IMG/VR virus record: IMGVR_UViG_2894657497_000001 | Location: 25,820 to 89,819 of that record | Direction: 5' to 3' (one strand) | Length of the DNA: 64,000 bases | From: a virus | Taxonomy: Duplodnaviria; Caudoviricetes | Shown: positions 1 through 18,947 of the stretch, piece by piece | Numbering within the stretch: the first letter of the stretch is position 1 | Layout of the letters: every line of letters begins with the position of its first letter | Notes under the pieces: model-generated | Databases searched by the model: none | The model's input: the letters and a program-made list of their open reading frames with translations, nothing else | What the model was told of the DNA's origin: nothing | Translations under genes and position numbers: made by a program

Positions 1-723
1 TTCAAGATCGAGAGCGTGAAACTGCGCGAGTCGCCAAAAGACATGCTGTTCGACCAGATGATCCGCCTGGCCATCATGCTCAAGGCAGCGGCATACGGCG
101 CCCACCCCAGCACCCTGAACCTGGAAATGGACAGCGGCAACGGGGGAGGCAACCTGTTCGGCGCCAACCCGGCCAGCGAGATTGAATTCAGCAAGGAGCA
201 TGGCCTGATACCGTCGCTGACGGATATGTGCGAGTGGTTCACCGACTGCATTATTCACCCTCGCTATGACGACCTGAAGCTGATATTGGTTGGCCTGAAC
301 CCGGAAGACGAAAAGGCGGCGGTCGATATCCGCACCGCCCGGGTCTCCAAGTGGGACACCAGAAATGAGGCGCGCTCCGAAGAAGGGAAATCCCCGATTG
401 GTTTCTGGCTGCCACCGGAGCAGTACAACAAGCTGCAGGAGGGGGATCCGCAGAAGGAACTGTACGACAAGAACCCCTGGAACTACCCGGCAGACGTCGC
501 GATCCCGAACTACATTAACACATTCAGCATGGCCGGTCAGCAAGGGCAGGACCAGGGCGACGACGGCCAGTATGACGACCAGCAAGATCAGGGCGACGAT
601 CAACAAGACCAGGACCAGCAGGACGACGGCAGCGATCAGTATTACAAGGCACTGCGGAAGTCCCGCAGGGGAGCGCGGCGAAAGACCAAGTTTCTCCAGA
701 TCAGCCTCGACGACCAGCTATAG
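1..723 (+). CDS. Portal protein, C-terminal part (truncated at window start)
   Basis: Open frame from the window edge; 'KEHGLIPSL...W' and 'TRNEARSEEG' resemble portal C-termini; acidic Q/D tail; first gene of the head module. Confidence 0.65.
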   Translation, partial: FKIESVKLRESPKDMLFDQMIRLAIMLKAAAYGAHPSTLNLEMDSGNGGGNLFGANPASEIEFSKEHGLIPSLTDMCEWFTDCIIHPRYDDLKLILVGLNPEDEKAAVDIRTARVSKWDTRNEARSEEGKSPIGFWLPPEQYNKLQEGDPQKELYDKNPWNYPADVAIPNYINTFSMAGQQGQDQGDDGQYDDQQDQGDDQQDQDQQDDGSDQYYKALRKSRRGARRKTKFLQISLDDQL

Positions 724-780: not shown

Positions 781-2190
781 GTGAAAGAAGTCGACGACCT
801 CAACAAAGCCATTGCCGAAACCACGGCAGCCGCCACCAGCCTCCTGCAGAAGTCGCATGTCAAGGCGTACACCAGAACCACCGCGTCCGGCGCAACGGTG
901 CAGGTCAAAGAGCATGACGACAGCCGGAACCCGAACATTATTGGCCAGGCAACAGGCATGAACGACAAAGCCCCGGAGAAAGCAACATCGTTCAACCACA
1001 ACGGAAAGGAATACCAGAGCACTGGTAAAGAAGGCACGTCGAATCACGACGGCAGGCCGGTCCGCGAGTTTGAGGCCGATGACGGGCATAGGGTGTGGCT
1101 CGACCATCATGCCAACGTCCATGCTGACTCGAAGGAAGAAGCCGACGAGCACCACAAGGGCAAGGCAGATTCCGCGAAGGAGTATGACAACAAGCGCCAG
1201 GACGCAGAGAAAGCGAGCGCCGCTGCCGACAAGCACCAGGCTGGCATGAATTGGGGAAAACCCGATATGAAGAAGCTGCAGGCGCTCCACCACGACGCAG
1301 CCAAGAAGCATATCGACGCCATGGAGGCCGCGCACCGCGCCGGCGACGGGGAGGCCATGCGCGACCACTACTACAAGGCCAGCGTACACCTGGGGGCCGG
1401 GCAATCGGCAGGGACTTTCAACCGGAAGGACGCGGAGCACAACGCCAAGGCACAGTCGGATATGGCCGAACACATCGGCAAGATCGCCGACCAGCACAAG
1501 ACCGAGCACAATGCCCATTCCCTTAACCACGGGGCAAGTATCCACTTGCTGGCCGCAGAGCAGCACCGTAGGGCGCAGGATGCCCACAGTCATGCCGCGA
1601 ACCAGAGCGGGTTCGGTAGTGAGCATTTTGATGAGCACATTGAATCGAGCAACTTCCACAAGGATAAAGCCAAGGAGCACGGCAGCAAAGCCGTCGATAT
1701 TGCCGGGGTGGCCACCAAGGCCAACGACAAGGCATACGCCGCCAGCGAGAAAGCCAAACGCAGCGGAAAGCCTGAAGACCACAAGGCCGCCGCAGAGGCC
1801 CACCGGGAAGCCGCCAAGCTGGACTACGACTCGGAAGGCAAAGCCGATCACGAAGCAAAGGCAGCAGAGCACGATAAGAAGGCCAAGCCGGCAAAAGAAG
1901 ACACAGGCCGGGGCGGGAAGACCACACTCGCCGACCTGAAAAAACACCCCAATTGGTCTGAAAGCGACCACCAGCACCTCAAAAGCAAAGGGTACTCCCA
2001 CGACGAGATAAAAGACATATGGGACCGCGACAAAGCTAGAGGTAACGGGCCGCTGGAACACAAAAAGGCCCCTGACACCGTTGGGACCGTAAGCGACCCC
2101 AATCATTTCAAAAAAAGTTCCGGATCGGATGACGATCTTAAAAAGGCGACAGACGAAGCGATAGCTGCTGCCGGCACCATTTTGGAATAG
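781..2190 (+). CDS. His/Ala/Lys-rich putative internal head protein
   Basis: RBS GAAGGAG before GTG; HxxAAxxH repeats; LxK[SA] motifs at both ends. Confidence 0.6.
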   Translation: MKEVDDLNKAIAETTAAATSLLQKSHVKAYTRTTASGATVQVKEHDDSRNPNIIGQATGMNDKAPEKATSFNHNGKEYQSTGKEGTSNHDGRPVREFEADDGHRVWLDHHANVHADSKEEADEHHKGKADSAKEYDNKRQDAEKASAAADKHQAGMNWGKPDMKKLQALHHDAAKKHIDAMEAAHRAGDGEAMRDHYYKASVHLGAGQSAGTFNRKDAEHNAKAQSDMAEHIGKIADQHKTEHNAHSLNHGASIHLLAAEQHRRAQDAHSHAANQSGFGSEHFDEHIESSNFHKDKAKEHGSKAVDIAGVATKANDKAYAASEKAKRSGKPEDHKAAAEAHREAAKLDYDSEGKADHEAKAAEHDKKAKPAKEDTGRGGKTTLADLKKHPNWSESDHQHLKSKGYSHDEIKDIWDRDKARGNGPLEHKKAPDTVGTVSDPNHFKKSSGSDDDLKKATDEAIAAAGTILE

Positions 2191-2205
2191 AAAGGCCGCC
2201 AGAGA

Positions 2206-5731: not shown

Positions 5732-5799
5732 ATCAAACAACCTCCTTTTGGATTTAAAAATATGGTCAACACCAGAGACAAGACTGACGATCAGAATGA

Positions 5800-7380
5800 T
5801 CACGCGAACAATTCCAGCATCGGCATGGCCGAGCCTCCGAACAAAGCCACCTGCAGATTGGCGTCGTAGGCCTTCTCCCCCTCGAAGGAATCCACCACGG
5901 CCCGCTCGGGAACGGTCAACTGCCGATATGGCCGCGCCCCGAAGTCGCCCGGCAACCAGCCCTTGCCGCGGCAAGCCACGACGTTGAACCGGCGCAGGAT
6001 ATCATCGTCACGGAACGTGAGATGAACGGTGCCCTTCTTATGGCAAGTGATCCTGAAATATGTACTTTGAATGCCGGACGATTCACCGCGAGAAAAGGCA
6101 TTTTTGATCGCATCAGACATCGGATGATAAGGAACGCCACCATCAAAATAATTCATAACTTTATCGATATCGTCCAAGAAGTCCGCCGCCCCATAGTTGA
6201 GATCCCAACCAGAATAGCCAACAAATGGCGAGCCGTAGCTGGCCCGCACCGGAACCACCACCCGCTTGCCGACCTTGAATGCCTTATTGGTTTTCCACCC
6301 ATTGAAATAGTGGATGTTTTTCTCGTAAAGCCCATCATCCCAGCAATGCCGGACCGTGAACATATCGAAGATATCCAGAACGGCCTCGGTCAGCGTTTTT
6401 TCGGCGCTTCCGATCAGATTGAGCCCGAACTGCCGGATGTTGCTCTCGGTAAAATCCATGTGGCAGTGCTCGGACAAGGAGTGCTCGAACTCCTGCCGTT
6501 TCGCAGACGTGAGCCGGGCCTTGAAGTCCTTAAGCTCCAGTGTCCGGCGCCAGAAGTCGGTGCGGACAGCAACCAATAAGGCATTGAGCGTGCCCTGCAT
6601 CTTGCCGGTCAGATCATCGCCAGAATAGGAGTAGCTGTCGGATTCTTTATTGAGGCCCAGATACTTCCCAATCTTCCGATAATTTTTGTAGTACGCCAGG
6701 ATGGTCTCGGTCCCCAGGCTCACGACCTCGTTGTACTCCGCCACAAGCTCGGGGATACTCCGACCGGTGGAAACCTCATTTTTATCGCTGACGGTCTGAT
6801 ACGCCCGGGCCGCATGATCGTCGCAGCCAGCGAATAGATCATCTTCGACATTCCGGGTAATCACGACATTGACCAGGGCCACCTCCACGTTGGTTTTCCG
6901 CTCGGCGCTGGCAAAGGCCCCATGGATGAACTCGATCTCCGCCCCAAGCTCTTCCAGGCGCCGCACAAGCAGCTTCCGATTATTGGTGTGCGGATTACGC
7001 AGGGTCTCGGCATTCAGCAGGAAGATGATCTGCCCGCGATACATGATATCGAGCGCTTTCAGCAGATGCAGATCGCCGTCGTCGAACGGAGGATTTGCGA
7101 TAATCAGGTCAAATTTATCGGGACCGGCGAACCCCATGAAATCGGAATCAATCACCTTGACGTCGTTCCCCCGAAGCGCCGCCTGCAGGATCGGGTCGAT
7201 CTCGATGGCGGAAACCTCAAACCGGCTGTTGCTGTACTTGAACGAGTCTTTGAGCCCATTGATCAGATCACCCTTGCCGGCAGACGGCTCCAAAACTTTC
7301 ACGGGATGACCCTTTATTTTGCTGACCATCTTTGACACCAGCGCCGGGGGCGTCGGGTAAAAATTTTTATTGTCGAACAC
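5800..7380 (-). CDS. SAM-dependent N6-adenine/N4-cytosine DNA methyltransferase with DUF4942-like C-terminus
   Basis: FYPTP, LEPSAGKG (motif I), NPPF (motif IV); C-terminal YFRITCHKKGTVHLTF. Confidence 0.85.
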   Translation of the reverse strand: MFDNKNFYPTPPALVSKMVSKIKGHPVKVLEPSAGKGDLINGLKDSFKYSNSRFEVSAIEIDPILQAALRGNDVKVIDSDFMGFAGPDKFDLIIANPPFDDGDLHLLKALDIMYRGQIIFLLNAETLRNPHTNNRKLLVRRLEELGAEIEFIHGAFASAERKTNVEVALVNVVITRNVEDDLFAGCDDHAARAYQTVSDKNEVSTGRSIPELVAEYNEVVSLGTETILAYYKNYRKIGKYLGLNKESDSYSYSGDDLTGKMQGTLNALLVAVRTDFWRRTLELKDFKARLTSAKRQEFEHSLSEHCHMDFTESNIRQFGLNLIGSAEKTLTEAVLDIFDMFTVRHCWDDGLYEKNIHYFNGWKTNKAFKVGKRVVVPVRASYGSPFVGYSGWDLNYGAADFLDDIDKVMNYFDGGVPYHPMSDAIKNAFSRGESSGIQSTYFRITCHKKGTVHLTFRDDDILRRFNVVACRGKGWLPGDFGARPYRQLTVPERAVVDSFEGEKAYDANLQVALFGGSAMPMLELFA

Positions 7381-7416
7381 GAGGCATATCCTCCATTGTT
7401 TGATATACGCTACAAG

Positions 7417-7710
7417 CTAGGCATGCGAACGGACGCCAGCGCAGAAATCACACAGCCCGATGCCACGGTCACAGTAGCAATTCATCAAGGACATAGCCAC
7501 CTGAAGACGGACATCATGCGGAAGATCAGCGACCGGCACCCGCTCCCACCGGGAAAGATCGGGAATATCCATCCAGGCGCCGGAGTCGATAGCCCGCCGA
7601 TAAACGAAGTCGCCGCCAGGAGGCAGCAGCAGGACAGCACCGTTTTTAAAGAGCGTCTTGTAGCCTTCCTGCCGCCACATGCGAGCATTTTTCCAGGGCT
7701 TTGGGGTCAT
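7417..7710 (-). CDS. Hypothetical protein
   Basis: ATGA-coupled in the minus-strand operon. Confidence 0.5.
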   Translation of the reverse strand: MTPKPWKNARMWRQEGYKTLFKNGAVLLLPPGGDFVYRRAIDSGAWMDIPDLSRWERVPVADLPHDVRLQVAMSLMNCYCDRGIGLCDFCAGVRSHA

Positions 7711-8018
7711 GGATGTTCACCTTTCGCCCTTGCAATTAAGGGTTTAGCTTTTTGCAGAGAGCACGTTTTACAAGCACATTTGTCTCCAAGGCTCGGCTGG
7801 TGCGCGTAACGCTCCACCATGCAGTCGGTGAGAAGTTCCAACACATCCAACAGTTCTGGGGCGACGGAGATTAGTGCGGCGTAGGCTTCTTGCTCTGGTG
7901 ATGGTCCTCGGTATGTAACCACGGGGGCGGTTTTGGCATCTGCAACGGTAATGGACCGGGTTCCCATCTGGTTTCCCCTGCGTATAATCCTCCACGGACC
8001 CCTGATGTGTTTGCTCAT
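7707..8018 (-). CDS. Hypothetical phage protein (GPW...A.LI..APELL type)
   Basis: Recognisable GPW / LISVAPELL pattern; coupled to neighbours. Confidence 0.6.
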   Translation of the reverse strand: MSKHIRGPWRIIRRGNQMGTRSITVADAKTAPVVTYRGPSPEQEAYAALISVAPELLDVLELLTDCMVERYAHQPSLGDKCACKTCSLQKAKPLIARAKGEHP

Positions 8019-8335
8019 GGCCGCCCTCCCCCCGCTTTCGCTATGGCGGCAAGAGCCTTATCGATACGAGCTTGTGCATCCGGCTTTTGCTCGTCAGGCA
8101 ACCGTTCCGCCAACAGCCGGAATGGAGCCAGCACTGCATGCAGGGCGTCCAGCAGTTCGGGATACGCAGCGAAGCCAGCAGCCACCTGGTCGAGGCCTTC
8201 CACCGGGCAGCCAGTAAGCGCCGGCGACCAGGCGATTGCAACAACGCGCTTCCCATCGGCATCCAGCACCATGGGCGATTTAAGCAGCACGGAGCCCGTA
8301 GCATCGCCACGAGTAAAGGACAACGGTAATTTCAT
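8015..8335 (-). CDS. Hypothetical phage protein related to the preceding one
   Basis: GGAGG RBS; AAYPELLDAL...AIAKA. Confidence 0.6.
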   Translation of the reverse strand: MKLPLSFTRGDATGSVLLKSPMVLDADGKRVVAIAWSPALTGCPVEGLDQVAAGFAAYPELLDALHAVLAPFRLLAERLPDEQKPDAQARIDKALAAIAKAGGGRP

Positions 8336-8441
8336 GATTTACCTCCAAATAAAATTTTTTAGCGTAACACAGGATGAACTATTTCAGGGGTTCCCAAAGT
8401 CCCGAAAAATGCAATAACGCCGCCCCCACCGGCCAGAATAA

Positions 8442-8915
8442 TCAAAAGATGCGGTCGAAATCGGGCTCCCCTTCGGTCGGGTCGGCCAAAAACTTGTCCC
8501 GGTCGATGACATCAGCACAAGACAGAAAGGTATCCAACATCTTCTCGGCGAGGTCGGCATTACCGGAGCACCACCGGCTCTCGTTATCCCAGATAAACAG
8601 ATATTCCTCGCCAGTGCGGGCCTTAATCCTTACCTCCGTAACCCAGCAGGGGATGGTGATGGTGACCTCGTAATTGTTCGGCAGCGCAAAACCATAATCG
8701 GTGCAGAAACACCGGTCGTCTTTTACGACGGATCCGCAATCCACGCATTTTTCGCCTTCGTGTTTACCTGCCTCGGGAGTTTCAAAGCCCTGGCCCAAAG
8801 TCAGGTAGCCCACATAGGTGTCAACGCATGTCGGGTCGACGCGGCCCACGGTCTTCGACGAATGCGAGCCGATGATGCTGATCAGGTTGGCGAAATAGTC
8901 GATCCGGTTTCTCAT
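8442..8915 (-). CDS. Hypothetical protein
   Basis: GGAGG RBS before ATG 8915. Confidence 0.5.
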   Translation of the reverse strand: MRNRIDYFANLISIIGSHSSKTVGRVDPTCVDTYVGYLTLGQGFETPEAGKHEGEKCVDCGSVVKDDRCFCTDYGFALPNNYEVTITIPCWVTEVRIKARTGEEYLFIWDNESRWCSGNADLAEKMLDTFLSCADVIDRDKFLADPTEGEPDFDRIF

Positions 8916-8985
8916 TGCAATATCCTCCAAGGGTAGAATGACTACGGATGAGACAAGATGCCCGGCCAGAATGATGCGGCAAAGT

Positions 8986-9016
8986 GTTTGATATGCGCTA
9001 CACCATGCCATATACT
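8986..9016 (+). promoter_or_regulatory. Sigma70-like promoter overlapped by the 17-bp motif
   Basis: TTGATA(8988)-17 bp-TATACT(9011); motif GTTTGATATGCGCTACA at 8986-9002. Confidence 0.7.
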
Positions 9017-9044: not shown

Positions 9045-12000
9045 ATGATCTCACTGATTAAGAGAATTTTAACCAAATCCCAAATGTCGCTTTTCGACTG
9101 GACCCCTACCCATGAAGAAACCAGGGCGAGACAGGGATATACCAGACATACCGCATCGGGCGCCGCCGTGCAGGTGAAACCCACCATGGCGAAAGTAACG
9201 GTCAGGGGCGGTGATGGGGAAGACCTCCACCACGGGCAGAAGGTCTACTACCGGATGCCGGGTCAACCGCGCAAAAAAAAGGGCACCATCGTCAGCGGCA
9301 GCCACGAGGCCGGCTTTGTTATCCAGCCGAACAGGGAAGGATACGTGTTCCACCCGCCCAAGATATCGGCGCACCGTGATCACATATGGACCCCCGACGA
9401 GCACCAGGCAGAATCGGCCAAAAGCAATATCCGGGAGACGACCTCGGGAGGCGGCAGCACCATCAGCGCCGACGAGAGCAAACGCAGGGCCGAAATCGGC
9501 CAGCAGAGGGCACAACTGTCTGAGGCCGAGGTACTACAGCACCCCGCCTTTGTTAAGCGCATGCGGGCGGTCCTGTCGCATCTGGCGGGCACAAACGGAT
9601 TCAACCCCCACTTTGTAGAGGCCAACGGCGTCCTGCACAACGACGATCCTGACGCCAACGAGCTCTACAGCGAATATATCACGGCGGCCATGAACTCCTA
9701 CCGCACCGAAACCAGCAAGGCCCCCCAGGCGGACCTCGACGAACTCAAGGCAAACCTTGAAGGCAAGAGCAAAGAGAGCCGGATACTCCTATCCATGACC
9801 CGCGCCGGCAAGACGGCGGCCCTGCGCCACCTCATGGATAACAAGGAGCGCCAGCAGAACGAGAACTCCTATGACTCGGGAGCAGAGGACGACTTCGAGA
9901 GCGGGATGCAGGGACTCTCCGGCGCCGTAGTCGAGAAAAAGGGAGAGCAGGCGACGGCCTCCGACAAGGCCCAACTGGAAACCGGCATCCTCCGCCAACT
10001 GAAGCGCATGGACGACCCCATCGCCGAAGCGATAGTCAAAATGAAATTCGGCCTCGGAAACTTCGAGCACGGATACAAGGAGTCGGATATTGCCGCGGCT
10101 CTGAACCGGAAGCGGATACCGGCACCGGACGGCGATGCCTGGGACAAGGAGCAGGTACAGACCCGGATGAAGACCGCGCTGGGGCAACTGGCCCGCACCA
10201 AGGGCGCACAGGAACTCCGCGGATTTCTCAAAAGCATGAAAGCGCTCGAAACGCTCCGCAAGGCCGAGAGCCAGAATACCGTTTGCGTGGATTTTGACGG
10301 CGTCATAGCGGACTACTCGCAGGGTTTCCAAGGAGCCGATATATTCGGGGCGCCGATCAAAGATCCCGGTACCGGTCTCACGGCAGCCGATGTGCTATCG
10401 GAACTCAAAGCCAATGGATGGAAGGTGATCATATTCACCACCAGGCAGGACACCCCTGCCCTGCGCGATTACCTCGCCATGGCCGGCGTGCCATACGACG
10501 AGATCAACACCAACAGCGACCAGCCGGAGGGCACCAACCCCGGGAAGCCGATAGCAGACGCCTACCTCGATGACCGGGCGGTGCGTTTTACCTCGTGGGA
10601 CAAAGCAGCGCGGGATCTCAAAACCATCAACAAGAGCGTCCGCATGGTCGGATCGGCCAAGCTGTACGACCTCATGGACCGGTTCCTGCTGATCAAATCC
10701 CATGTGCGCCAATATGTGCGTCAGGACGGCAGCGTCGTTCAGGCCCACGACGACAAGCGTATCAAGAAGCACCAGGACATCCTCCGGCACCAGAACGAGC
10801 ACCACGAAGAGATCCACACCGGGGCCACGATCAAGCACGGCGACGAACTGGCAGAGCACCTCAAGAACCAGGGATGGAAAGCCCGCGAGGTCCACCCCGT
10901 CGAGAAGGACGAAAAGGCCAAGCCCGGCAAGAAGGAAGACATGCCGGAGCATGAGGAAATCCAGGCCAAGAACCGGGACAACCCCGCCCTTCAAACCGCA
11001 GAACGGGGCATGAAAAAGATGCGCGAGGCGGCCCTTGCCAGCGACGACCCGGCAGCGGTACTGCACACCATGAATACCTCCCGGTCGAACACCTACACGG
11101 CGGCGGTAGACGACTACCGGGAGAAGCTGCTCAACCACCTGGGGTACAAGGTCAACCGGGACAAGACCGCCACCAAATACGACAAGGACGGGCACACGCT
11201 CATCATGTCGAAGGATGGCGACAAGCATACCATCCACTTTGCCGGGGGTGATGCCGCCGCCAAGGACAAGGCCATCGGCAACCTGCAGGGCAAGAAGGAG
11301 GTCCAGAGCGTCGACACGGGCAAGAAGACGCTGACGTTTACCTTCGGCAAGGACGACAAGTCCTATACCGCCAAACTGAATCCGGTCCACAGCAAATATG
11401 CGCTGGTGGAGGCCGACGACCTGACGACGAGCCACACGATCCAGGGGCACGTCAATAAGGCATACCCCCAGGAAATCCAGCCGAGGGAGCGCGAACGCCT
11501 GTCCAGCCAGATGCAGATGGCGAACATGATGAACGACATCAAGCCCGAGCTATTCACCGGCGCCGGCATGGCCGCCCACGGCGCCCCCATCGTCGGCAAG
11601 GACGGAGCAGTGGAGTCGGGGAACGGTCGCACCATCGCGCTGGCCGAGGCGTACCAGCGCGGTCTGGCCGATCACTACAAGGAGCATATCAAAAAGAACG
11701 CCGCAGATTTTGGCCTGAAACCGGAAGACGTCGACAAGATGAAAAACCCGGTGCTGGTCAGGGTGAGGAACGACGACGATCCGAACACGGACCGGGCAGA
11801 GTTCGCCCGGGAGGCCAACGACACCGGGAATCTCGGTTCCTCGCCGGCAGAACAGGCATGGACCGACGCCAGCAGGATCGACGACACGCTGCTCAAGAAG
11901 TTCATGGTCGACGAAGACGGGGAAGTCTACAACGACGACAACATGGAATTTATCAACGGATTCCTCGATAAGCTGGGCAAGAACGAGGCAGCCGGCCTCC

Positions 12001-14165
12001 GTGACGCCGATGGCGACCCGAACAAGAAATGCATCGAGCGGATACAAAACGCGGTATTTACGAAGGTGTACGGAAGCTCCGTGCTGACCGAATTGCAGGC
12101 CGAGAGTGCGAAGCCGAAGATACGGAACGTCATGAAGGCGCTCAACGCATGCGTCCCCGACTTTGCCCAGACGCAGGGGCATGACGACCTGGATGTGGTG
12201 CCGGACATGATGGAGGCCATAGAGTACACCATGGCCCACCAGAGCGAGAGCCGGGCCGAACTGGAACACAACCTGCGGAATGCCGGCGCTCTGGATTTCA
12301 CCGGAGACACGCCGAAATTCAAAACTGATTTCGCAGTGGACATGATACTGGCCGTGGCCGACCGCACCGGATCCAGGAACCGCCTGGAGAACGTGTTCCG
12401 GGCGATCAGCAACGGGATAAAGGACGAGGTCGCCAGCAGGGAGAACCCAGAGGTGGATATGTTCTCCGGGCCGGCCAAGCCGAAGACCAAACAGCAGGTG
12501 GTAAAGCAGGCGCTTGACAAGGTGAGCCATTCCGATGAAGGTGTCAGGAAGTCATTGTGCGCCGCAGGCTTATACCTACTCACGAAAACCAAGGGAGGGA
12601 CATATGGCAGAACTGACCGAAGCACAGAAGTATGCCCGCAAGTCGAAACTGTTGCAAAAAGCACTGGCCGACGCGGACAAGATGGACGCAGCCGACAAGA
12701 AAAAAGCAACGGCGGAGAAGGCAAAGAAGAAACCGGAGACTGCGGCAAAGAAGGAGCAGTAGAACATCACTGCACAAAGAATACTTGCCCATCTTGTGGG
12801 TCGGAAACGACCTGCCGATGCATCAGAACCCCAAAAACCAAAGTCAAAATAACGCATGAACAGTGCTATTACTGCAAAACAGGTGAGCCCCGAGGCCCCC
12901 TGTTTAAAGCCGAATGTTCAGGCGTGTACCTGCTGCGCAAGAGCAACCCGAACCATGGCGAACATGGCAGGTTCGCAACAGGTAGCACCACGAAAACAAA
13001 CGGTCCTAACTACCTCTCCCCCACGGCAGAAACCAAAATTGGTCGTGGGATGGAAATTGCCAGAATGCTGAAACCACTCAATGTCCCCGACCTATATAAC
13101 AGCAACAATGTCACCATGGAAGAAGCGAAAAGCATAGGGACGCAATACTATAGGCTGAAATTGATGCCAACACCGATAAACAGCCCGGCATTTAATGGTG
13201 CCCCCATCAGATTTACTGAAACAGGATTGGCACATTTGCTTGGCAAGCACATGCGAGAAATACCGGAAGCCAGCATAAAAAGAAGGCTCAAATTGCTTCC
13301 GAAAGTTAAAGCAACACTCGAAACAACACCGTTCGTAGATGAAATTCGAGACAGGGCAGATGGGGCAAAAGAGTATGGTCTGCTCGGAAGGTTCACAGAC
13401 GGAGAAGTAATACGGGTGGCATTGGAAGAAAAGGTTGTCGGGGAAAGAACTTTCTTGACGGTATACGATTGGGAGGACGTAAGTAAAAAAATCAAGCGGG
13501 AATCCCAGCCGAACCCGCTCGCGGATGGCGCACTTCGTGGGGTGGGCGTGGCACCACATGCAACCATCCAAGACAATATTACCAAATCCACAATTTTGTG
13601 CAAGAGCAAAAACATCACCTTCAACTATGTGATTTTATCGGAAGAACTGTACCTCATCAGAAGAAAGGCACCGACCCCAAATGATGCCGCAGTTCGACAT
13701 CCCGAGTTCTTGATCAAGGCCCGCCCCCTCCATGGCCGCATAGACTTCAACGGCCTGAAAGTGAGCGTCGAGAACCGCATGGGCAGCATCCGGCAGTGGG
13801 AGGATCCGAACAACGGCGAAAACGGCATGACCAGGATGAAACGGCCATATGGGTACGTCAAAGGTACGCTCGGCGTCGATGGCGACCATTACGACGTCTA
13901 TGTCGGGCCGGACCGGGAGGCCCCCAACGTTTATATCATCACCCAAATGAAGGCCCCGGAATTCGCCGAAGTGGACGAGGAAAAGGCTCTGCTCGGATTC
14001 CCCAGCCAGGAGGACGCCGAAAAGTTCTACCTACAGCACTACAATGACCCGAGATTCTTGGGCAAGATAACGCCCATGCCGTTCGAGGAATTCAAGGCCC
14101 AGGTGATGACAACCAGGGCAAACCCCAGGCTGCTGGCGGAAGGCATTGGTACGCCCGCTGCGTAG
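9045..14165 (+). CDS. Large polyvalent virion protein (sigma-like HTH, HAD hydrolase, DdrB-like ParB, RelE/BECR-like nuclease, inorganic-pyrophosphatase-like domain)
   Basis: VKMKFGL...ESDIAAAL; CVDFDG...KP.AD.YLDD; YALVEADDL...QPR...APIV...ESGNGR; IRFTETGLAHL; VSVEN..GS.R...YGY..GT.G.DGDH.DV...DEEK.LLGF; start placed downstream of the promoter. Confidence 0.8.
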   Translation: MISLIKRILTKSQMSLFDWTPTHEETRARQGYTRHTASGAAVQVKPTMAKVTVRGGDGEDLHHGQKVYYRMPGQPRKKKGTIVSGSHEAGFVIQPNREGYVFHPPKISAHRDHIWTPDEHQAESAKSNIRETTSGGGSTISADESKRRAEIGQQRAQLSEAEVLQHPAFVKRMRAVLSHLAGTNGFNPHFVEANGVLHNDDPDANELYSEYITAAMNSYRTETSKAPQADLDELKANLEGKSKESRILLSMTRAGKTAALRHLMDNKERQQNENSYDSGAEDDFESGMQGLSGAVVEKKGEQATASDKAQLETGILRQLKRMDDPIAEAIVKMKFGLGNFEHGYKESDIAAALNRKRIPAPDGDAWDKEQVQTRMKTALGQLARTKGAQELRGFLKSMKALETLRKAESQNTVCVDFDGVIADYSQGFQGADIFGAPIKDPGTGLTAADVLSELKANGWKVIIFTTRQDTPALRDYLAMAGVPYDEINTNSDQPEGTNPGKPIADAYLDDRAVRFTSWDKAARDLKTINKSVRMVGSAKLYDLMDRFLLIKSHVRQYVRQDGSVVQAHDDKRIKKHQDILRHQNEHHEEIHTGATIKHGDELAEHLKNQGWKAREVHPVEKDEKAKPGKKEDMPEHEEIQAKNRDNPALQTAERGMKKMREAALASDDPAAVLHTMNTSRSNTYTAAVDDYREKLLNHLGYKVNRDKTATKYDKDGHTLIMSKDGDKHTIHFAGGDAAAKDKAIGNLQGKKEVQSVDTGKKTLTFTFGKDDKSYTAKLNPVHSKYALVEADDLTTSHTIQGHVNKAYPQEIQPRERERLSSQMQMANMMNDIKPELFTGAGMAAHGAPIVGKDGAVESGNGRTIALAEAYQRGLADHYKEHIKKNAADFGLKPEDVDKMKNPVLVRVRNDDDPNTDRAEFAREANDTGNLGSSPAEQAWTDASRIDDTLLKKFMVDEDGEVYNDDNMEFINGFLDKLGKNEAAGLRDADGDPNKKCIERIQNAVFTKVYGSSVLTELQAESAKPKIRNVMKALNACVPDFAQTQGHDDLDVVPDMMEAIEYTMAHQSESRAELEHNLRNAGALDFTGDTPKFKTDFAVDMILAVADRTGSRNRLENVFRAISNGIKDEVASRENPEVDMFSGPAKPKTKQQVVKQALDKVSHSDEGVRKSLCAAGLYLLTKTKGGTYGRTDRSTEVCPQVETVAKSTGRRGQDGRSRQEKSNGGEGKEETGDCGKEGAVEHHCTKNTCPSCGSETTCRCIRTPKTKVKITHEQCYYCKTGEPRGPLFKAECSGVYLLRKSNPNHGEHGRFATGSTTKTNGPNYLSPTAETKIGRGMEIARMLKPLNVPDLYNSNNVTMEEAKSIGTQYYRLKLMPTPINSPAFNGAPIRFTETGLAHLLGKHMREIPEASIKRRLKLLPKVKATLETTPFVDEIRDRADGAKEYGLLGRFTDGEVIRVALEEKVVGERTFLTVYDWEDVSKKIKRESQPNPLADGALRGVGVAPHATIQDNITKSTILCKSKNITFNYVILSEELYLIRRKAPTPNDAAVRHPEFLIKARPLHGRIDFNGLKVSVENRMGSIRQWEDPNNGENGMTRMKRPYGYVKGTLGVDGDHYDVYVGPDREAPNVYIITQMKAPEFAEVDEEKALLGFPSQEDAEKFYLQHYNDPRFLGKITPMPFEEFKAQVMTTRANPRLLAEGIGTPAA
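12604..12762 (+). CDS. Small Lys/Ala-rich ORF nested out of frame inside the polyvalent gene
   Basis: AGGGAGGG RBS then ATG; MAELTEAQKYARKSKLLQKALAD... Confidence 0.45.
   Translation: MAELTEAQKYARKSKLLQKALADADKMDAADKKKATAEKAKKKPETAAKKEQ
13485..13603 (-). ncRNA. Candidate antisense small RNA (about 85 nt) with its own promoter and terminator
   Basis: TTGCAC-16-TAATAT with extended TG; GGATGG/CCATCC stem; AGCGGG/CCCGCT hairpin followed by a T7 tract. Confidence 0.5.
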
Positions 14166-14192: not shown

Positions 14193-14600
14193 GTGAACTG
14201 CAACGAATGTACGACCCACTGCATAAAATGCGACGACTTTGAAAACCAGGTAGACGGAGAAGCAGATATCACCACCCTTAAGGACATCAGAAAAACGCTG
14301 ATGCAGCACAAGGTCCAGACCGATGGCAGCCTGTCGGGCAAGATCGCCGATTGGTTGACCTCGAAGATCGGCACGATGGCCTGCATTTACCTGTTCACGA
14401 TTTTTGTGAGCATCCCCTTTATCTTCCCGAAGACCCTGGAAATCGTCCAGTTCGTCGGTGGAACGTACATCCCCCTGGTGCTCATGCCGCTGATTATGGT
14501 CGCCAGCAACCGCACCGACAAAATCCGCGAGATCAGAGCAGAGCGGGAATACCGCATCCTCCTGGTGTCAGACCGGATCGACGAAGTGATGGGAGATTAA
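14193..14600 (+). CDS. DUF1003-like membrane protein
   Basis: GGAGG RBS; KIADWLT..IGT and PLIMVASNR; two TM segments. Confidence 0.65.
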   Translation: MNCNECTTHCIKCDDFENQVDGEADITTLKDIRKTLMQHKVQTDGSLSGKIADWLTSKIGTMACIYLFTIFVSIPFIFPKTLEIVQFVGGTYIPLVLMPLIMVASNRTDKIREIRAEREYRILLVSDRIDEVMGD

Positions 14601-14602
14601 AA

Positions 14603-15079
14603 ATGGCAGGCAAGATGATCAAACGCACCCTGACCGAGATAGTGGTGGTGCCCGAGCACGGCGAGCGTACCGAATCGGCGGAGTTCCGCAGGACCAAAAA
14701 GAGGCTCAAAGCAGACGGGCATTTCAAATGCTGGGTATGCGGAGCCACGGAGGATATCGAGGTCCACCACTACGGCGGCGAGTGGAGCCTGAGTAATGAT
14801 ATCGACTTTGCAAAGCTCAAGGAGTTTTGCGAGGAATGGGACGTGTACGGGTATGGCCGTCTGCTCAAGGCCCAGCCGATCACGACCGTAGACGATATCC
14901 GAAACGCAATGTGCCTGTGCAGGGAGCACCACACCTCTGACGGCAACGACGGAGTCAACAACGGGATCCACTTTATAACCTTCCCCATCTGGATCGCCCA
15001 GCGGCTGGCCAAGGCCGGGGAGAGCCCGGTACCGGACGACACCGCAGACCTCAAAGAAGAACTGGCAAAAGCAGACTGA
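14603..15079 (+). CDS. HNH-like nuclease-fold protein
   Basis: CWVCG...EVHH...LCREHH. Confidence 0.65.
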   Translation: MAGKMIKRTLTEIVVVPEHGERTESAEFRRTKKRLKADGHFKCWVCGATEDIEVHHYGGEWSLSNDIDFAKLKEFCEEWDVYGYGRLLKAQPITTVDDIRNAMCLCREHHTSDGNDGVNNGIHFITFPIWIAQRLAKAGESPVPDDTADLKEELAKAD

Positions 15080-15881: not shown

Positions 15882-16775
15882 ATGGAAGACAGCCAAGTCC
15901 TATTCGAAATGCCGGTGGAGATGGAGCTACGCAAGAGCGGAGACGGGAACCGCCGCATCGTGCGCGGCTACGCATCGACCGAATCCATGGATCAGGACGG
16001 CGAGACGATCCTGCAGAAGGGAATCGACTTCTCCCCCCTGCTTAAATCCGGATTCATCAACTACGACCACCAGTACCGCGACATATGCGGCGCGAAGATG
16101 CCGATCATCATCGGTTACCCCATCAAGGCCGAGATCCGCGACAAGGGGCTCTGGGTCGAAAGCGAACTGCTCAAGAGCACCGATGCCGGCGACGTGACCA
16201 GCGAGCAACTGCGCCTTGCCGACGAGATGTGGGCGCTCGGTATGGCCCTGAAAAAGTCAGGGACCAGAAGCCTGGCGTATTCGGTCGAGGGCGGCGTGCT
16301 GCAACGCAAGGGAAAGAAGATCGTCAAGTCCGTGGTGAAACATTGCGCGCTCACGCACAAGCCGGTCAACCCGGAGGCAACGGTCGAACTGTTCGCAAAG
16401 TCGCTCTGCTGCGGTCGCTGCAACCCGGAGAGCCCGCTGTTTATCCCGGGGCACTCCTGTGGTGATCACGCCCCGGTTTCCAAAGAGGACCGGGAGAACA
16501 TCAGTAAGGCCCTGGATACCACGAATGGCGCCCCGCTCATGCGGGAAAACCTCGACAGGGGCATTACGTGCCTGCTGTACGGCGACACCAACTGCGGATG
16601 CTGCAATGGCAACGGGAAATTCATAAACGGCATGCAGGGGGCAGTAGAGCACCTCCAGAAATGCCGCGGCGCGTCCAGGGACGAGAGCCTCAACTTCCTG
16701 CGGAGACTTATCACCGGATCCGCATACAACCCTGACCTCGCCGGAATAGTTAAACAGGCAGGAATCGTCACATAA
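15882..16775 (+). CDS. Prohead protease
   Basis: IVRGYAST...DQDGE...INYDH...YSVEG...ALTHKPVN. Confidence 0.9.
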   Translation: MEDSQVLFEMPVEMELRKSGDGNRRIVRGYASTESMDQDGETILQKGIDFSPLLKSGFINYDHQYRDICGAKMPIIIGYPIKAEIRDKGLWVESELLKSTDAGDVTSEQLRLADEMWALGMALKKSGTRSLAYSVEGGVLQRKGKKIVKSVVKHCALTHKPVNPEATVELFAKSLCCGRCNPESPLFIPGHSCGDHAPVSKEDRENISKALDTTNGAPLMRENLDRGITCLLYGDTNCGCCNGNGKFINGMQGAVEHLQKCRGASRDESLNFLRRLITGSAYNPDLAGIVKQAGIVT

Positions 16776-16792: not shown

Positions 16793-17482
16793 ATGGTAAA
16801 AGATCAGACGGCCTTGAAAAAGGCAATGGCAGAACTCGATGCAATCGAGAAGTCTGTCTCCGGCGAGCAGGAAAGCGAAATCGACACGCTCACCAAATCG
16901 CTGGAAGACGAACTCGGAGGCGCAGCAGCCGCGCAGGCGGACCTCGCCAAAAGCACTGCGAGCGATGATGACAAGGGCGCAGAACCGGAGCCGGAAAACG
17001 ACTCGGACGCGGACGACGACGTTGAGAAATCCCAGCAGAGCGCCGCGTTCTCCGAAGAGCTGGTCAAGGCGAGCGAAATGTACGCCACCCTGACGAAATC
17101 CGTTCAGGACGGCATGGACACCACCATCGGAGCCCTCGATGTGATCCGCAAATCCCTGGCCGCATCCCTGAACCTCCAGATCAAGACCGCCCAGGTCGTC
17201 GGGATGTTGGTCAAAGCCATGCCGGATACCGACAGCCTCGAAGGGATCAAGAAGTCCATCGATTCCCTGGCTGGCGGCGCGGTAATCCCCAACAAGGCGG
17301 TTTTGGGAATGGGCGAAGCCGAGCATATCGAAAAGAGCGAGAAGACCAACAGCGAGGTCCGGGAAGCGCTCAACAAGGCGGTCGATGAAGGCCGGGTCGC
17401 CGCAGGATACCTCTCGGTGTTCGGAACGTACAGAGATGTCAACCGTCTCCCCGAAGACGTAAGAAAAGAAATCGGCTTCTAG
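16793..17482 (+). CDS. Capsid scaffold-like protein
   Basis: Acidic and helical, between protease and capsid; about 12 [LIV]xK[SA] motifs. Confidence 0.7.
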   Translation: MVKDQTALKKAMAELDAIEKSVSGEQESEIDTLTKSLEDELGGAAAAQADLAKSTASDDDKGAEPEPENDSDADDDVEKSQQSAAFSEELVKASEMYATLTKSVQDGMDTTIGALDVIRKSLAASLNLQIKTAQVVGMLVKAMPDTDSLEGIKKSIDSLAGGAVIPNKAVLGMGEAEHIEKSEKTNSEVREALNKAVDEGRVAAGYLSVFGTYRDVNRLPEDVRKEIGF

Positions 17483-17510: not shown

Positions 17511-18947
17511 ATGGTACTGTCTTATGACCAGATCCTTAAAAGCGCCGGCATGGAAATCACCGGCGATGACCGGGTAGAAGATCTCCGCAAGGCCCTCTAC
17601 TCGACCCAGAGCGGCGCCGCTTCCGGCTCGTCTGCCGGCCCGCTGATGCTCGAAAACCTGGACTCGGTGATGACCGAAGTCCTCTACACCGAGAAGCACT
17701 TCAAGGTGTACAACTACCTGCCCAAAGTCCCGAGTGCCCAGGCGTACTACCAGTACAACAAGCACACCGGATACGGCAGCAACCGTGCCGGTGGCGCAGG
17801 CTTCGCTGAAGGTGGCGCACCGCAGGGCCGCAACTCTACGTTCTCGCGTAACGGCGTCTACACCAAATACCTCGGCGTCCAGGGCGGCGTTACTCACCAG
17901 ATGCTGGTGGCCGGCCAGAACGGTGGCGTGTTTGAAGACCCGAACGTCCGTGAGAACCGCGACCGCACCCTGGAACTGCTCGAAAAAATCGAGCGCGAGC
18001 TGGTGTTCGGCCAGGCTGCCATCCAGGACGGCAACGGCGTCGAGGTCAACTTCGACGGCCTTCTGACCTCCCTCATGGCGCAGAAATCGTCCAACGTGAT
18101 CGATATGCAGGGCAAGCCTCTGGGATTCAGCAACCTCGACGAATCCGCGCTCTCGTTGGTCACTACCGGCAAGCAGCCCTCCGTCGATGGTTACATCTGC
18201 CTGAGTTCTGCCCACGTTAAGAGCGGCCTCAACAAGCAGTTCGCCGCCGCCAACATGGTCCGTATGAACAAGGATACCGCAACCGGCCAGGTCTATACCC
18301 CCGGTACGGCAATCGATAAGTACGACACCGAGTTCGGCACCATGCAGCTTGACCACAGTATCTTGCTGCAGGAAGTCGATGGTGGCGTACCGGCAACAGT
18401 CGCTCTGGCCAACTCCCCGGCGATTCCTGCCATCACCACCCAGCCGGCAGCAACGGCAGATGCCGCCTCCACCCTGTTCGCCGGGACGTACTACTACTCG
18501 GTGGCAGCCTTCAACGACGTGGGCGAATCGCTGCCGGTCGTCTGCACCGCAGTAGCCCCCACCGCAGGCCAGCGGGTCACCATCGTGATCACCCGTACCA
18601 CCGGCGCCACCGGCTACCGTATCTACCGCGGCCTTGCTGCTGACGGCTCCGACGCCAAATGGATTGCTAAGGTGGCCCAGACCGCTGCCGGCAACCTGAC
18701 GTTCGTCGACCAGGGCGCATGGAAACCGCTGGACGTCAACGGTAAACCCGGCGACGGTATCGCAATCCTGTTCAAGCCCAACCCGGCAGACATTGCGATT
18801 GCCCAGATGACCCCGCTGATCAAGATGCCGCTGCCGCAGGTTGGCACCATCTTCCCCTTCCTGCTCTTGGTCTACATGGTGAGCGTGCTCAAAGCCCCCG
18901 AGCGCCTGATCATTTACAAGAACTGCGGGACTTACCCTACGGCGTAA
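17511..18947 (+). CDS. Major capsid protein (Herelleviridae-like, with an Ig/FN3-like insertion)
   Basis: LRKAL...PLMLENLD, EVNFDGL, TYYYSVAAFN.GES, IAQMTPLIKMPL; strong RBS; followed by a terminator. Confidence 0.9.
   Translation: MVLSYDQILKSAGMEITGDDRVEDLRKALYSTQSGAASGSSAGPLMLENLDSVMTEVLYTEKHFKVYNYLPKVPSAQAYYQYNKHTGYGSNRAGGAGFAEGGAPQGRNSTFSRNGVYTKYLGVQGGVTHQMLVAGQNGGVFEDPNVRENRDRTLELLEKIERELVFGQAAIQDGNGVEVNFDGLLTSLMAQKSSNVIDMQGKPLGFSNLDESALSLVTTGKQPSVDGYICLSSAHVKSGLNKQFAAANMVRMNKDTATGQVYTPGTAIDKYDTEFGTMQLDHSILLQEVDGGVPATVALANSPAIPAITTQPAATADAASTLFAGTYYYSVAAFNDVGESLPVVCTAVAPTAGQRVTIVITRTTGATGYRIYRGLAADGSDAKWIAKVAQTAAGNLTFVDQGAWKPLDVNGKPGDGIAILFKPNPADIAIAQMTPLIKMPLPQVGTIFPFLLLVYMVSVLKAPERLIIYKNCGTYPTA

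Follow-up and report, generated by a model that had tools for sequence, protein, structure and literature searches.

A lysine-centred motif of phage head proteins recurs at the domain joints of a polyvalent protein and suggests a capsid-packaged polyprotein

In this study, we analyzed a 64,000-nt stretch (the window) of an uncultured Caudoviricetes contig with a 90-kb genome (IMG/VR record IMGVR_UViG_2894657497_000001, positions 25,820 to 89,819) and identified a short motif, [LIVF]xK[SA], that is enriched in the scaffold, the prohead protease and a large polyvalent protein encoded among the head genes. The motif at the joints between the enzymes of this polyvalent protein is the same as in the scaffold, which makes it probable that the protein is packaged in the capsid and separated by the head protease into injectable enzymes. 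Of the possible readings of these sequences, packaging together with prohead-protease cleavage is the one that we prefer and, in our judgment, a fairly probable one. The sequences show the motif statistics, the siting of the motif in linkers, conservation of the junction lysines, domains that move with their flanking sites and homology to a virion protein; packaging, cleavage, the choice of the sites used and injection are what we would infer from them.

Enrichment of the motif in head proteins

The putative cut falls after the lysine (K↓S or K↓A). In a comparison with 500 composition-preserving shuffles of each protein, we counted 14 matches in the polyvalent protein, where 3.9 were expected, 12 in the scaffold (0.92 expected) and seven in the protease (0.65 expected), and none of the 500 shuffles reached the observed number in any of the three. 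All 92 proteins of a rough gene call contained 100 matches versus 54.7 expected. Without seven head proteins, simple arithmetic leaves 55 matches versus approximately 46 expected, which is near background; natural sequence exceeds the shuffle expectation about 1.2 times in the rest of this genome. A similar excess was observed in 18 distant polyvalent proteins that lack this system (91 matches versus 59.8 expected; range overall 1.2-1.5 times). Every motif position that the initial annotation had listed in the polyvalent protein, scaffold, protease, capsid protein (ILKS and LRKA) and portal (LRKS) was confirmed.

None of seven control patterns was comparably enriched in the same three proteins. 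Replacement of lysine by arginine ([LIVF]xR[SA]) gave 0, 0 and 1 matches, the reversed motif 0, 2 and 3, and other residues at P1' ([LIVF]xK[GTN]) 0, 1 and 3. One control alone was reached by none of the 500 shuffles, and this in the protease only: the form without the gap, [LIVF]K[SA] (four observed versus 0.63 expected). Glutamate at P1 was not supported either, with 1, 0 and 6 matches to [LIVF]xE[SA] versus 1.05, 0.6 and 3.5 expected. In an unbiased scan of all a.bc patterns, I.KS, L.KA and L.KS ranked at the top in the scaffold and L.KS in the protease; L.KS was fourth in the polyvalent protein. Among the remaining proteins, a pattern of this kind did not emerge.

The motif was present within the first 45 residues of 16 of the 92 proteins, including all seven of the portal, g781, g2206, polyvalent protein, protease, scaffold and capsid protein; the portal N-terminus, which lies beyond the window, contains both LPKS and LIKA. 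As in the substrate sets of T4 and phiKZ-type proteases, one short motif is thus common to the capsid N-terminus, scaffold, protease and polyvalent protein. The protease gene is followed by those for the scaffold and the capsid protein, which places a prohead protease beside both (Table 1). Assignment of this protease to a head-maturation family comes solely from PHROG phrog_1028, and it matched neither a Pfam peptidase family nor a PDB sequence.

We observed the same signature in Herelleviridae, one Thermus phage and one unrelated metagenomic phage. Among relatives, L002 had 12 matches in the scaffold, seven in the protease and 13 in the polyvalent homolog, while L004 and L008 had 10 and 8 in the scaffold and 7 and 6 in the protease, respectively, and mostly none in tail ORFs. 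Staphylococcus phage Team1 had seven matches in the scaffold-position ORF (1.2 expected) and VVK↓SFQTGYG in the capsid protein. In Bacillus phage SP-10, the scaffold had seven matches to the strict motif, counted without shuffles, and the capsid protein NLNK↓A. Thermus phage Lalka8 had five matches in the protease (0.5 expected) and FVK↓A in the capsid protein. The unrelated metagenomic phage G001, for which M was also permitted at P3, had five in the protease (0.78 expected), eight in the scaffold (1.0 expected) and LQK↓A in the capsid protein. At the matching place, capsid proteins read ...VVK↓SFQTGYG in K-like and ...ALK↓SFTTGYG in A511-like phages. The initial annotation gives Twort/A511-like capsid precursors as cut at K↓S; our literature search, which included passages of PMC3185647 and PMC3601020, returned nothing on this site.

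Virions of the related phage Lalka27a contain two large proteins, Lvh and a DarB homolog, as described in part of a preprint (10.64898/2026.04.20.719267). The Lalka8 counterparts were considered as further motif-rich cargo and rejected, since neither was enriched (three matches versus 3.06 expected in Lvh, six versus 4.1 in DarB).

Domains and putative cut sites of the polyvalent protein

The polyvalent protein gene is located between the portal gene, which ends at nt 723, and the protease gene, on the same strand. The public gene call begins at M48 of our numbering. A megablast search with this gene against 50,697 phage records returned no match.

Table 1. Head-module features in the window. 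Arrows mark putative cuts; residue (aa) numbers of the polyvalent protein count M at nt 9045 as 1; pLDDT values are from AlphaFold models.
Feature	Position (nt)	Strand	Details
LRK↓S near portal C-terminus	652..663	+	
His/Lys/Ala-rich head protein (P0114)	781..2190	+	leader, LQK↓S (nt 844-855), hairpin HVKAYTRTTASGATVQVKEHDD
Polyvalent protein gene	9045..14165	+	1706 aa; start 9045 backed by N-terminal leader conserved in homologs
Site LTK↓S, aa 9-12	9069..9080	+	ends 11-aa leader MISLIKRILTK; pLDDT below 50
N-terminal unit, aa 12-396	9078..10232	+	'QMSLFDW' and weak hairpin, β-rich part, helical part
Double site FLK↓S (394-397) and LRK↓A (404-407), before HAD	10224..10265	+	
HAD-type phosphatase cassette, aa 407-530	10263..10634	+	motif I DFDGV; phrog_1238 8.5e-23
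Double site INK↓S (528-531) and LIK↓S (549-552), after HAD	10626..10700	+	residues 529-573 pLDDT below 50
Hairpin module SHVRQYVRQDGSVVQAHDDKR, then His-rich stretch, aa 552-615	10698..10889	+	modelled strands 553-558, 564-569
DdrB-like block, aa 744-1187	11274..12605	+	Pfam DdrB-ParB at 781-908, 1.3e-35
Site VRK↓S, aa 1167-1170, DdrB block end	12543..12554	+	
Low-complexity, Cys-rich spacer, aa 1170-1299	12552..12941	+	residues 1181-1312 pLDDT below 50
Spacer sites VAK↓S 1203, LFK↓A 1286, LRK↓S 1297	within 12552..12941	+	
Putative RNase domain, RelE/BrnT/CdiA-CT-like (BECR-fold), aa about 1312-1519	12978..13601	+	
Sites ITK↓S 1512, LCK↓S 1518, LIK↓A 1556, linker before InPase	13578..13721	+	residues 1495-1563 pLDDT below 50
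InPase (type I pyrophosphatase-like) domain, aa 1563-1686	13731..14102	+	Pfam 6.7e-34; VIA Z 5-5.9
Prohead protease	15882..16775	+	phrog_1028 9.2e-43; 7 motif matches; N-terminus MELRK↓SGDGNRRIVRGYAS
Scaffold protein	16793..17482	+	12 motif matches, 12/21 of scaffold lysines
Major capsid protein	17511..18947	+	N-terminal ILK↓S (aa 8; nt 17532-17543), LRK↓A (aa 25; nt 17583-17594)

As in the polyvalent proteins defined by Iyer et al. (2017), multiple unrelated domains, including DdrB-ParB and InPase, are joined in one protein located among head genes. Residues 775-1187 share 33% identity with P1 DdrB (tblastn, E 5e-59), in its ParB-like N-terminal region, which places this block in the DdrB family. 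The InPase domain matched a portal C-terminus (PDB 9b41_L residues 636-732, E 7e-14). Two matches fell below the Pfam cut-off: the HAD cassette to Hydrolase (5e-4) and the putative RNase domain, weakly, to LPD3 (0.024). A peptidase domain of its own (MPTase or other), common but not required in such proteins, was not found in the polyvalent protein, searched as six fragments at E up to 1 and as a whole. A zincin reading of 'HEEIH' (aa 587-591) was dropped because homologs carry G, K or S at residue 587.

Several observations on the N-terminal unit serve as leads only. Its helical part contains a sigma-r4/HTH-like stretch, Foldseek rows for the N-terminal model were Tudor-like, sigma-like and HAD, and the best score of an Atlas look-up was 0.83. 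Neither of the two structure models had a Foldseek match at E up to 0.001.

Regarding the placement of the 14 motif matches, 11 fall within linkers or spacers between domains and one more (K396) at the end of a domain, which agrees for the most part with the claim of the initial annotation that the motif clusters at domain borders. The 11 matches that it listed were correct. It omitted VAKS 1203 in the spacer and two matches located inside the DdrB block, VNKA 803 and VMKA 1029, which are probably not cut. Three of the 14 matches lie away from domain borders. Segments with pLDDT below 50 account for 32.8% of modelled residues and contain ten of the 12 modelled sites (binomial estimate about 5e-4), although shallow alignments (16-18 sequences) may partly cause the low pLDDT instead of disorder. 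The values are about 61 for K396, which is in a predicted helix, and about 55-62 for K1169. In addition, seven of the nine sites in aa 1-1240 are within 10 residues of indel-rich columns, versus a baseline of 39%.

Conservation of the junctions and a leader-site-hairpin unit

We compared the query with 17 homologs (18 rows, fewer where a segment is missing). Together, the homologs contain 186 motif matches versus 66.4 expected, the homologs being related and their counts not independent. K396, S397, L549 and K551 are invariant in all 18 rows, the N-terminal site is [LIF]xKS in all 16 aligned rows, and the second pre-HAD site (LRK↓A) is kept in 13 of the 14 rows having that segment. At VRK↓S 1167, 13 of 18 rows keep K-[SA], and homology breakpoints fall at 1161-1182. 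The in-domain lysines drift, with K 9, R 6, Q 1 and T 1 at K805 and K 11, R 5 and G 1 at K1031 (17 rows each). In the spacer, the query has a degenerate 'YLLTKT' where 14 of 18 rows carry LxK[SA], and a breakpoint at 1229-1238 is 24-33 residues from the nearest query site.

The domain content of homologs varies as the separate-effector idea of the initial annotation would lead one to expect, with the HAD cassette absent or moved, InPase split off and flanking sites kept. At least P0008, P0010 and P0014 lack the HAD cassette, their flanks being joined and the flanking sites retained; in P0012, the cassette lies downstream of the DdrB block instead, bordered by LFKALLQK↓S and TLRK↓S..ILRK↓S. L002 and L008 each encode InPase as a gene of its own: the L002 protein carries the leader ...LPSLIK↓S, and in L008 the domain is preceded by LIK↓A and followed by LIK↓S, a hairpin and topoisomerase IB. 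In distant lineages, the putative RNase domain does not have behind it the site that is present there in the query.

At many junctions, the motif is part of a longer conserved unit, which consists of a hydrophobic leader, hydrophobic-x-K↓[SA] and a His/Arg β-hairpin with the consensus S-H-V-K-x-Y-T-R-x-D-G-T-x-V-x-x-H-D-D-K-R. Profile searches, used because an initial regular expression was too strict, identified 137 copies in 102 proteins with diverse effectors, such as SAM lyase, Zeta-type kinase, ADP-ribosyltransferase, helicase, topoisomerase IB, RNase and InPase. K-[SA] directly precedes the hairpin in all 137 copies; the leaders (6-44 aa) are freely variable in sequence and often contain extra sites. 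No Pfam or NCBIfam model matches this unit, and the term-matched passages of PMC5512222 do not mention such a cassette. In a local search of the query, a strong hairpin copy was found only behind K551 and a weak one near the N-terminus.

We tentatively suggest that leader, site and β-hairpin might form a portable pack-and-release tag in a large phage clade: the effector behind it would be loaded into the procapsid, freed by the maturation protease and leave with the DNA, bearing the hairpin as its new N-terminus. The hairpin might then be the actual capsid-retention or ejection signal. Polyvalent proteins in this lineage would consist of such units arranged in tandem, which would account for the movement, fusion and splitting of cassettes at the sites. 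The idea that maturation releases separate effectors is partly supported: the parts testable on sequence (head-module specificity, location in linkers, junction invariance and travel with domains) held, with the qualification that many sites belong to this longer unit.

Related processing systems and alternative explanations

In the reading that we prefer, the 1706-aa protein would be a head-internal cargo polyprotein, made late with the head genes, that enters the procapsid as a single chain. The phage's own prohead protease would cut it after Lys in hydrophobic-x-Lys↓Ser/Ala, and the same enzyme would trim the capsid N-terminus, dice the scaffold and trim itself. Cuts would fall in disordered linkers, often at double sites 10-40 residues apart, so that a small spacer is excised. 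The predicted products are a 385-aa N-terminal unit, the HAD phosphatase, a hairpin-plus-DdrB-ParB unit, the RelE/BrnT-like putative RNase and InPase, which would leave the capsid together with the DNA.

In T4, a single phage protease, gp21, acts on the capsid protein, on the scaffold core and on packaged cargo (IPI-III, Alt), cleaving all of them at a short three-position motif, [LI]-x-Glu. P1 is Glu in T4, whereas hydrophobic-x-Lys↓Ser/Ala is found here, and T4 cargo is encoded by separate small genes, in contrast to several enzymes in one chain with sites at each joint. HK97 gp4 cuts gp5 at K103↓S104, a maturation cut after lysine and before serine by a protease co-assembled in the procapsid; however, scaffold function in HK97 is within the delta domain of the capsid protein, and a cargo polyprotein is absent. 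T4 internal proteins lose short N-terminal leaders, their capsid-targeting sequences, and foreign cargo can be loaded by tag (PEPP; described in part of PMC9024508). The proteases phiKZ gp175 and SPN3US gp245 resemble the system proposed here in their many substrates, multiple propeptide cuts, motif within the protease and ejection proteins matured in the head. As given in passages of PMC10052503, gp245 uses 14 sites in nine proteins (A-x-E, Ser preferred at P1'), of which 13 remove N-terminal propeptides rather than separate enzyme domains. P1 is acidic there and lysine here, and those giant phages belong to a different capsid lineage. Lys-coded processing here would be a variant of T4/phiKZ-type processing with lysine at P1.

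For the P1 Dar system, we know of no K↓S code, and the bond cut in its capsid protein is E120↓S121. Delivery of Dar/Ddr proteins with the virion, which the initial annotation had stated, agrees with the detection of DdrB, the homolog of aa 775-1187, in P1 heads (39 peptides; Table 1 of PMC9024508), and passages of the same paper report a short N-terminal signal that loads DarB and a foreign protein into the capsid. P1 DdrB is standalone with a metallopeptidase-type C-terminus, according to the relevant part of Iyer et al. (PMC5512222). Polyvalent proteins, with DdrB-ParB, InPase and LPD-type domains in one polypeptide by head genes as here, have been predicted to be packaged and injected, and their processing into units has been proposed (Iyer, Burroughs, Anand, de Souza, Aravind 2017; in passages of PMC5512222). 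Those passages assign processing to in-protein peptidase domains (MPTase), none of which is detectable here, whereas the sites here match the code of a trans-acting prohead protease. No description of a lysine code for polyvalent proteins was found in our literature search.

Several observations count against the cutting model, including the predicted helix at K396, the pLDDT of K1169, the off-site breakpoint at 1229-1238, the three off-border matches, the degenerate 'LTKT' of the query, the natural excess over shuffles, the possible effect of shallow alignments on pLDDT, the unenriched Lvh and DarB of Lalka8 and the lack of a Pfam peptidase or PDB sequence match for the protease. Large cargo can also travel uncut, since the N4 virion RNA polymerase is packaged unprocessed (stated in part of PMC5512222). 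A less likely explanation, though one that deserves attention, is that the polyvalent protein is packaged and injected intact or minus its 11-aa leader, and that the internal motifs belong to a structural or targeting module (leader and hairpin) from once-separate cargo genes, kept for binding the scaffold, capsid interior or DNA. The K-[SA] fixed before every hairpin copy could be part of one folded or binding unit, and helical K396 fits the same explanation. However, the motif takes more than half of the scaffold lysines and marks capsid and protease N-termini in distant phages without any hairpin, which fits a protease code better; most query junction sites have no strong hairpin copy behind them, and the leaders vary in length and sequence and often carry extra sites, like removable propeptides.

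It is improbable that another enzyme, either a host protease or the product of a small Cys/His-containing ORF (2478-2933, 151 aa), is responsible, or that cleavage occurs only after injection. Processing of polyvalent proteins by non-prohead peptidases, including after injection, was proposed by Iyer et al. (2017; in passages of PMC5512222), and the 151-aa ORF shifts around the head module, its L002 homolog adjoining the polyvalent gene. However, no peptidase family was detected in this ORF or in the polyvalent protein, and a motif common to the scaffold, capsid N-terminus and protease itself points to the maturation protease. An excess arising from composition, helix periodicity or shared ancestry in a protein that is not a virion component is already disfavoured and very improbable: homolog counts are not independent and natural sequences exceed shuffles, but the control patterns are flat, junction lysines are invariant while in-domain lysines drift, sites move along with cassettes, and there is homology to virion DdrB and portal-fused InPase.

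Polyvalent proteins are regarded as the earliest weapons that a phage injects, and the one described here is a 190-kDa chain of unrelated enzymes. The proposal in print for their deployment is self-cleavage by built-in peptidases (in passages of PMC5512222). A trans-acting lysine code common to the scaffold and capsid would offer a concrete route, with exact mature products predicted; ordinary tryptic proteomics would miss these cuts because trypsin also cuts after lysine. If the reading of packaging and prohead cleavage is right, the lysine-code signal may offer a natural cargo tag for capsid loading, and the hairpin module would allow the injected effectors of many uncultured phages to be listed from sequence alone.

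Motif excess in the head module

The window, which covers the right-hand 64 kb of one 89,819-bp virus contig, encodes a myovirus-type structural module (see table), whose capsid protein shares only about 28% identity with its counterparts in SPO1-like phages. No near DNA match of the polyvalent gene was found among 50,697 phage records. The minor-head-like gene, a single 410-aa ORF in the related locus L002, is broken in two in the window: residues 4-79 of the L002 ORF correspond to nt 2215-2442 and residues 85-402 to nt 2909-3862, in a different frame. Exactly between the halves lies a 151-aa ORF (2478-2933, phrog_5845; no match in a Pfam search), whose L002 homolog is 56% identical and located after the polyvalent gene; this ORF may be a mobile insertion. 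The minus-strand island interrupting the head module carries a 526-aa DUF4942/methyltransferase-like protein (5800-7380, Pfam 1.6e-36).

Features of the window, with [LIVF]xK[SA] counts (observed; expected from 500 composition-preserving shuffles per protein; shuffles reaching the count)
Feature	Position	Strand	Family match	Observed	Expected	Shuffles
Portal gene, end part	1-723
g781, 469-aa His/Lys/Ala-rich protein	781-2190			4	1.3	21/500 (0.042)
Minor-head-like gene, split	2206-3907
g2206, head-module protein	start 2206			2	0.14	1/500 (0.002)
ORF island	about 3.9-9.0 kb (3911-9011)	-
Polyvalent protein, 1706 aa	9045-14165	+		14	3.9	0/500
HAD-like phosphatase	aa 399-529		PHROGs 8.5e-23
Long DdrB-type families	aa 744-1142		PHROGs
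DdrB-ParB	aa 781-908		Pfam 1.3e-35
InPase	aa 1563-1686		Pfam 6.7e-34
HNH-endonuclease-like ORF, between polyvalent gene and protease	14351-15079 (start tentative)		phrog_8048 3e-33
Prohead protease	15882-16775		phrog_1028 9e-43	7	0.65	0/500
Scaffold	16793-17482			12	0.92	0/500
Major capsid protein	17511-18947		phrog_752 2e-50	3	0.95	40/500 (0.08)
Sheath and other tail genes	after capsid gene

All motifs named in the initial annotation were found in the proteins to which it had assigned them, and the polyvalent protein has three more (VNKA 803, VMKA 1029 and VAKS 1203). The whole genome (92 proteins, rough gene call) contains 100 matches vs 54.7 expected from composition; without the seven head proteins, 55 remain vs about 46 expected by our arithmetic, and thus the ordinary proteins of this genome are near 1.2 times expectation. 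The observation in the initial annotation is confirmed, with an excess in the scaffold, protease and polyvalent protein. None of seven control patterns was comparably enriched in these three proteins, where counts (in that order) were 0, 0 and 1 for [LIVF]xR[SA], 0, 2 and 3 for the reversed motif, 0, 1 and 3 for [LIVF]xK[GTN], and 1, 0 and 6 for [LIVF]xE[SA]; the only control reaching 0/500 shuffles was the no-gap [LIVF]K[SA] in the protease (4 vs 0.63 expected). When all single-letter a.bc patterns were scanned blind, I.KS, L.KA and L.KS came out at the top in the scaffold, and L.KS at the top in the protease and fourth in the polyvalent protein, with nothing similar in the remaining 19,481 residues. 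Sixteen of the 92 proteins, including all seven of portal, g781, g2206, polyvalent protein, protease, scaffold and capsid protein, have the motif in their first 45 residues. A 779-aa tail protein in tape-measure position (27220-29559) has six matches vs 2.2 expected (shuffle fraction 0.022), which may be due to chance.

Domains and sites of the polyvalent protein

Conservation of the N-terminal leader among homologs and an upstream G-rich stretch support the start at nt 9045. The public gene call (P0002, 1659 aa) begins at M48, so that the leader, the first site and the 'QMSLFDW' element (window 9045-9185) are missing from the automatic annotation. Residues 775-1187 share 33% identity with P1 DdrB (E 5e-59), a P1 head protein represented by 39 peptides (PMC9024508 Table 1). 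The InPase part matches residues 636-732 of portal chain 9b41_L by sequence (E 7e-14) and inorganic pyrophosphatases by model comparison (Z 5-5.9). Both the DdrB homology and the portal-fused InPase support, at the sequence level, a location of the polyvalent protein in the head. Residues 1300-1520 have 39 homologs among 1.84 billion representatives (envelopes about 1312-1519). Residues 1314-1494 fold at pLDDT 89-98 in the AlphaFold model, and residues 1370-1485 within them align to CdiA-CT, RelE and BrnT toxin folds; since the Z scores (3.7-4.9) are middling, a putative RNase, in agreement with the 'nuclease' of the initial annotation, is a lead only. The leads for the N-terminal 385 residues are all weak (an HTH/sigma-r4-like stretch, Tudor-like strands), and no peptidase domain was found across the polyvalent protein. 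Directly behind the hairpin lies a His-rich stretch (aa 566-615, window 10740-10889) that recurs in L008 ORF 3428-4000 and, with H568, H576, H582, H586, H591 and H598 invariant in 18/18 rows, may be a metal site.

Clustering of the motif at domain borders, as initially proposed, holds for all but three of the 14 matches. Two AlphaFold models were used (aa 1-780, 18 aligned sequences; aa 1140-1706, 16), in which segments with pLDDT below 50 comprise 442 of 1347 modelled residues and contain 10 of the 12 modelled sites (about 5e-4 by our own binomial estimate), although low pLDDT may partly stem from shallow alignments. Low-confidence segments include 1-22, 406-410, 529-573, 1181-1312 and 1495-1563. 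K396 (in a helix, pLDDT about 61) and K1169 (about 55-62) are at domain ends. The two matches in aa 781-1139, between the modelled parts, fall inside the DdrB block and behave as ordinary positions: K805 is K in 9, R in 6, Q in 1 and T in 1 of 17 rows, and K1031 is K in 11, R in 5 and G in 1. Border placement by pLDDT agrees with two independent lines. Seven of nine sites in aa 1-1240 are no more than 10 residues from indel-rich alignment columns (baseline 39%), and BLAST breakpoints against 17 homologs cluster at four places, namely 396-417 and 541-549 (HAD cassette borders), 1161-1182 (DdrB block end), 1528 (end of the match to homolog P0013) and 1541 (InPase start); one breakpoint, at 1229-1238, is 24-33 residues away from the nearest query site.

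These 17 close homologs (1114-2392 aa; 29-74% identity in BLAST segments) contain 186 matches vs 66.4 expected, counts that are not independent, given the relatedness of the proteins; eighteen distant polyvalent proteins have only 91 vs 59.8 expected. K396, S397, L549 and K551 are invariant in 18/18 rows, the N-terminal site is kept in all 16 rows that cover it, and the 406 site in 13/14 rows having the segment. Past the end of the DdrB block, 13/18 rows have K-[SA], and 14/18 have a second site about 11 residues further on, where the query has a degenerate 'LTKT'.

Comparison of domain content, as suggested by the initial annotation, revealed cassettes that were absent, moved or separate, with flanking sites kept or joined (| marks the presumed cut). 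The HAD cassette is missing in at least P0008, P0010 and P0014, where its flanking sites are joined. Its position in P0012 is downstream of the DdrB block, where LFKALLQK|S and TLRK|S...ILRK|S enclose it once more. In L002 InPase has a 302-aa gene of its own, starting MIEDKKSIKHLPSLIK|SRQLHGR (query counterpart PEFLIK|ARPLHGR), and in L008 it heads a 450-aa gene (4461-5813), with LIK|A in front and LIK|S, hairpin and type IB topoisomerase behind. In P0013 the putative RNase domain is still followed by DNITK|S and then by a different module; no corresponding site was found after this domain in P0061, P0063, P0064 and P0065, from other lineages. L008 also encodes a different polyvalent protein (3-3431) that includes an SNF2-type helicase portion and has two hairpin junctions.

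Lysine code and leader units in other phages

Motif matches in other phages (expected in brackets; scaffold, or ORF in scaffold position)
Phage or locus	Scaffold	Protease	Capsid N-terminus
L002	12	7
L004	10	7
L008	8	6
Bacillus SP-10 (raw counts, without shuffles)	7 strict	starts DLKK|S	NLNK|A
Staphylococcus Team1	7 (1.2)	4 (0.9)	VVK|SFQTGYG
Listeria LMTA-34	3 (1.3)	2 (0.64)	ALK|SFTTGYG
Thermus Lalka8	2 (0.43)	5 (0.5)	FVK|A
G001 (M also allowed at P3)	8 (1.0)	5 (0.78)	LQK|A

Tail ORFs of L004 and L008 have 0 or 1 matches each. The capsid proteins of A511 and Twort are reportedly cut at the corresponding K|S bond. G001 is an unrelated metagenomic phage found only via its hairpin-bearing Zeta-kinase protein. 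It also encodes a 1626-aa protein (L021 124-5004) in which VDK|S and MVK|S come after an N-terminal InPase domain, and, behind the capsid gene, a 293-aa protein starting MKPIILLIK|A (L021 11476-12357). Judging from these sequences, the lysine code is common to the whole head-module lineage.

Several junctions and several N-termini share a longer unit, with the consensus hydrophobic leader, hydrophobic-x-K, S/A and H-V-K-x-Y-T-R-(3-6)-G-x-x-V-x-V/E-H-D-D-K-R, which in the window is strong at polyvalent residues 549-575 and g781 residues 22-52 and weak at the polyvalent N-terminus. An eight-copy profile retrieved 108 proteins (E ≤ 1e-3); a second profile, restricted to the sequence that follows K-[SA], picked out 137 copies, spread over 102 of these proteins. 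P1 is K in all 137, P1' is S in 94, A in 42 and T in 1, and P3 is L in 91, F in 24, M in 13, I in 6 and V in 3, with some bias because the retrieval profile included the four site positions. Rather than being cleaved, K-[SA] could be an integral part of this targeting unit. In 66 copies the start lies no more than 45 residues from the N-terminus, and the cargo behind the unit includes Zeta_toxin/AAA_33, S-AdoMet lyase, DUF6900, ART-PolyVal, SNF2 helicase, topoisomerase IB, PBECR and InPase. In the scanned proteins, the unit was not matched by any Pfam-A or NCBIfam model; two strands were predicted by AlphaFold with low confidence. Behind many hairpins there is a second small module ('...RV.+YG.KL...L+.ERFGHLPHWG.LD..T...IL.AED') ending in another ...LFK|[AS] site, found in L002 13694-14300, P0003-P0018 and L008 3428-4000.

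Proposed role of the prohead protease

On the simplest account, cleavage by the prohead protease would follow the Lys of hydrophobic-x-K|S/A. A point against this reading is that large cargo can travel uncut. For polyvalent proteins, self-processing is proposed in PMC5512222, whereas we propose cutting by the prohead protease. Under such cleavage after lysine, the protease would trim the capsid protein and itself, dice the scaffold, strip leaders from cargo and cut the polyvalent chain at its linkers. The scheme would work like those of T4 gp21 and phiKZ/SPN3US gp245 (the latter in PMC10052503), but with lysine, as read from sequence, in place of glutamate at P1.
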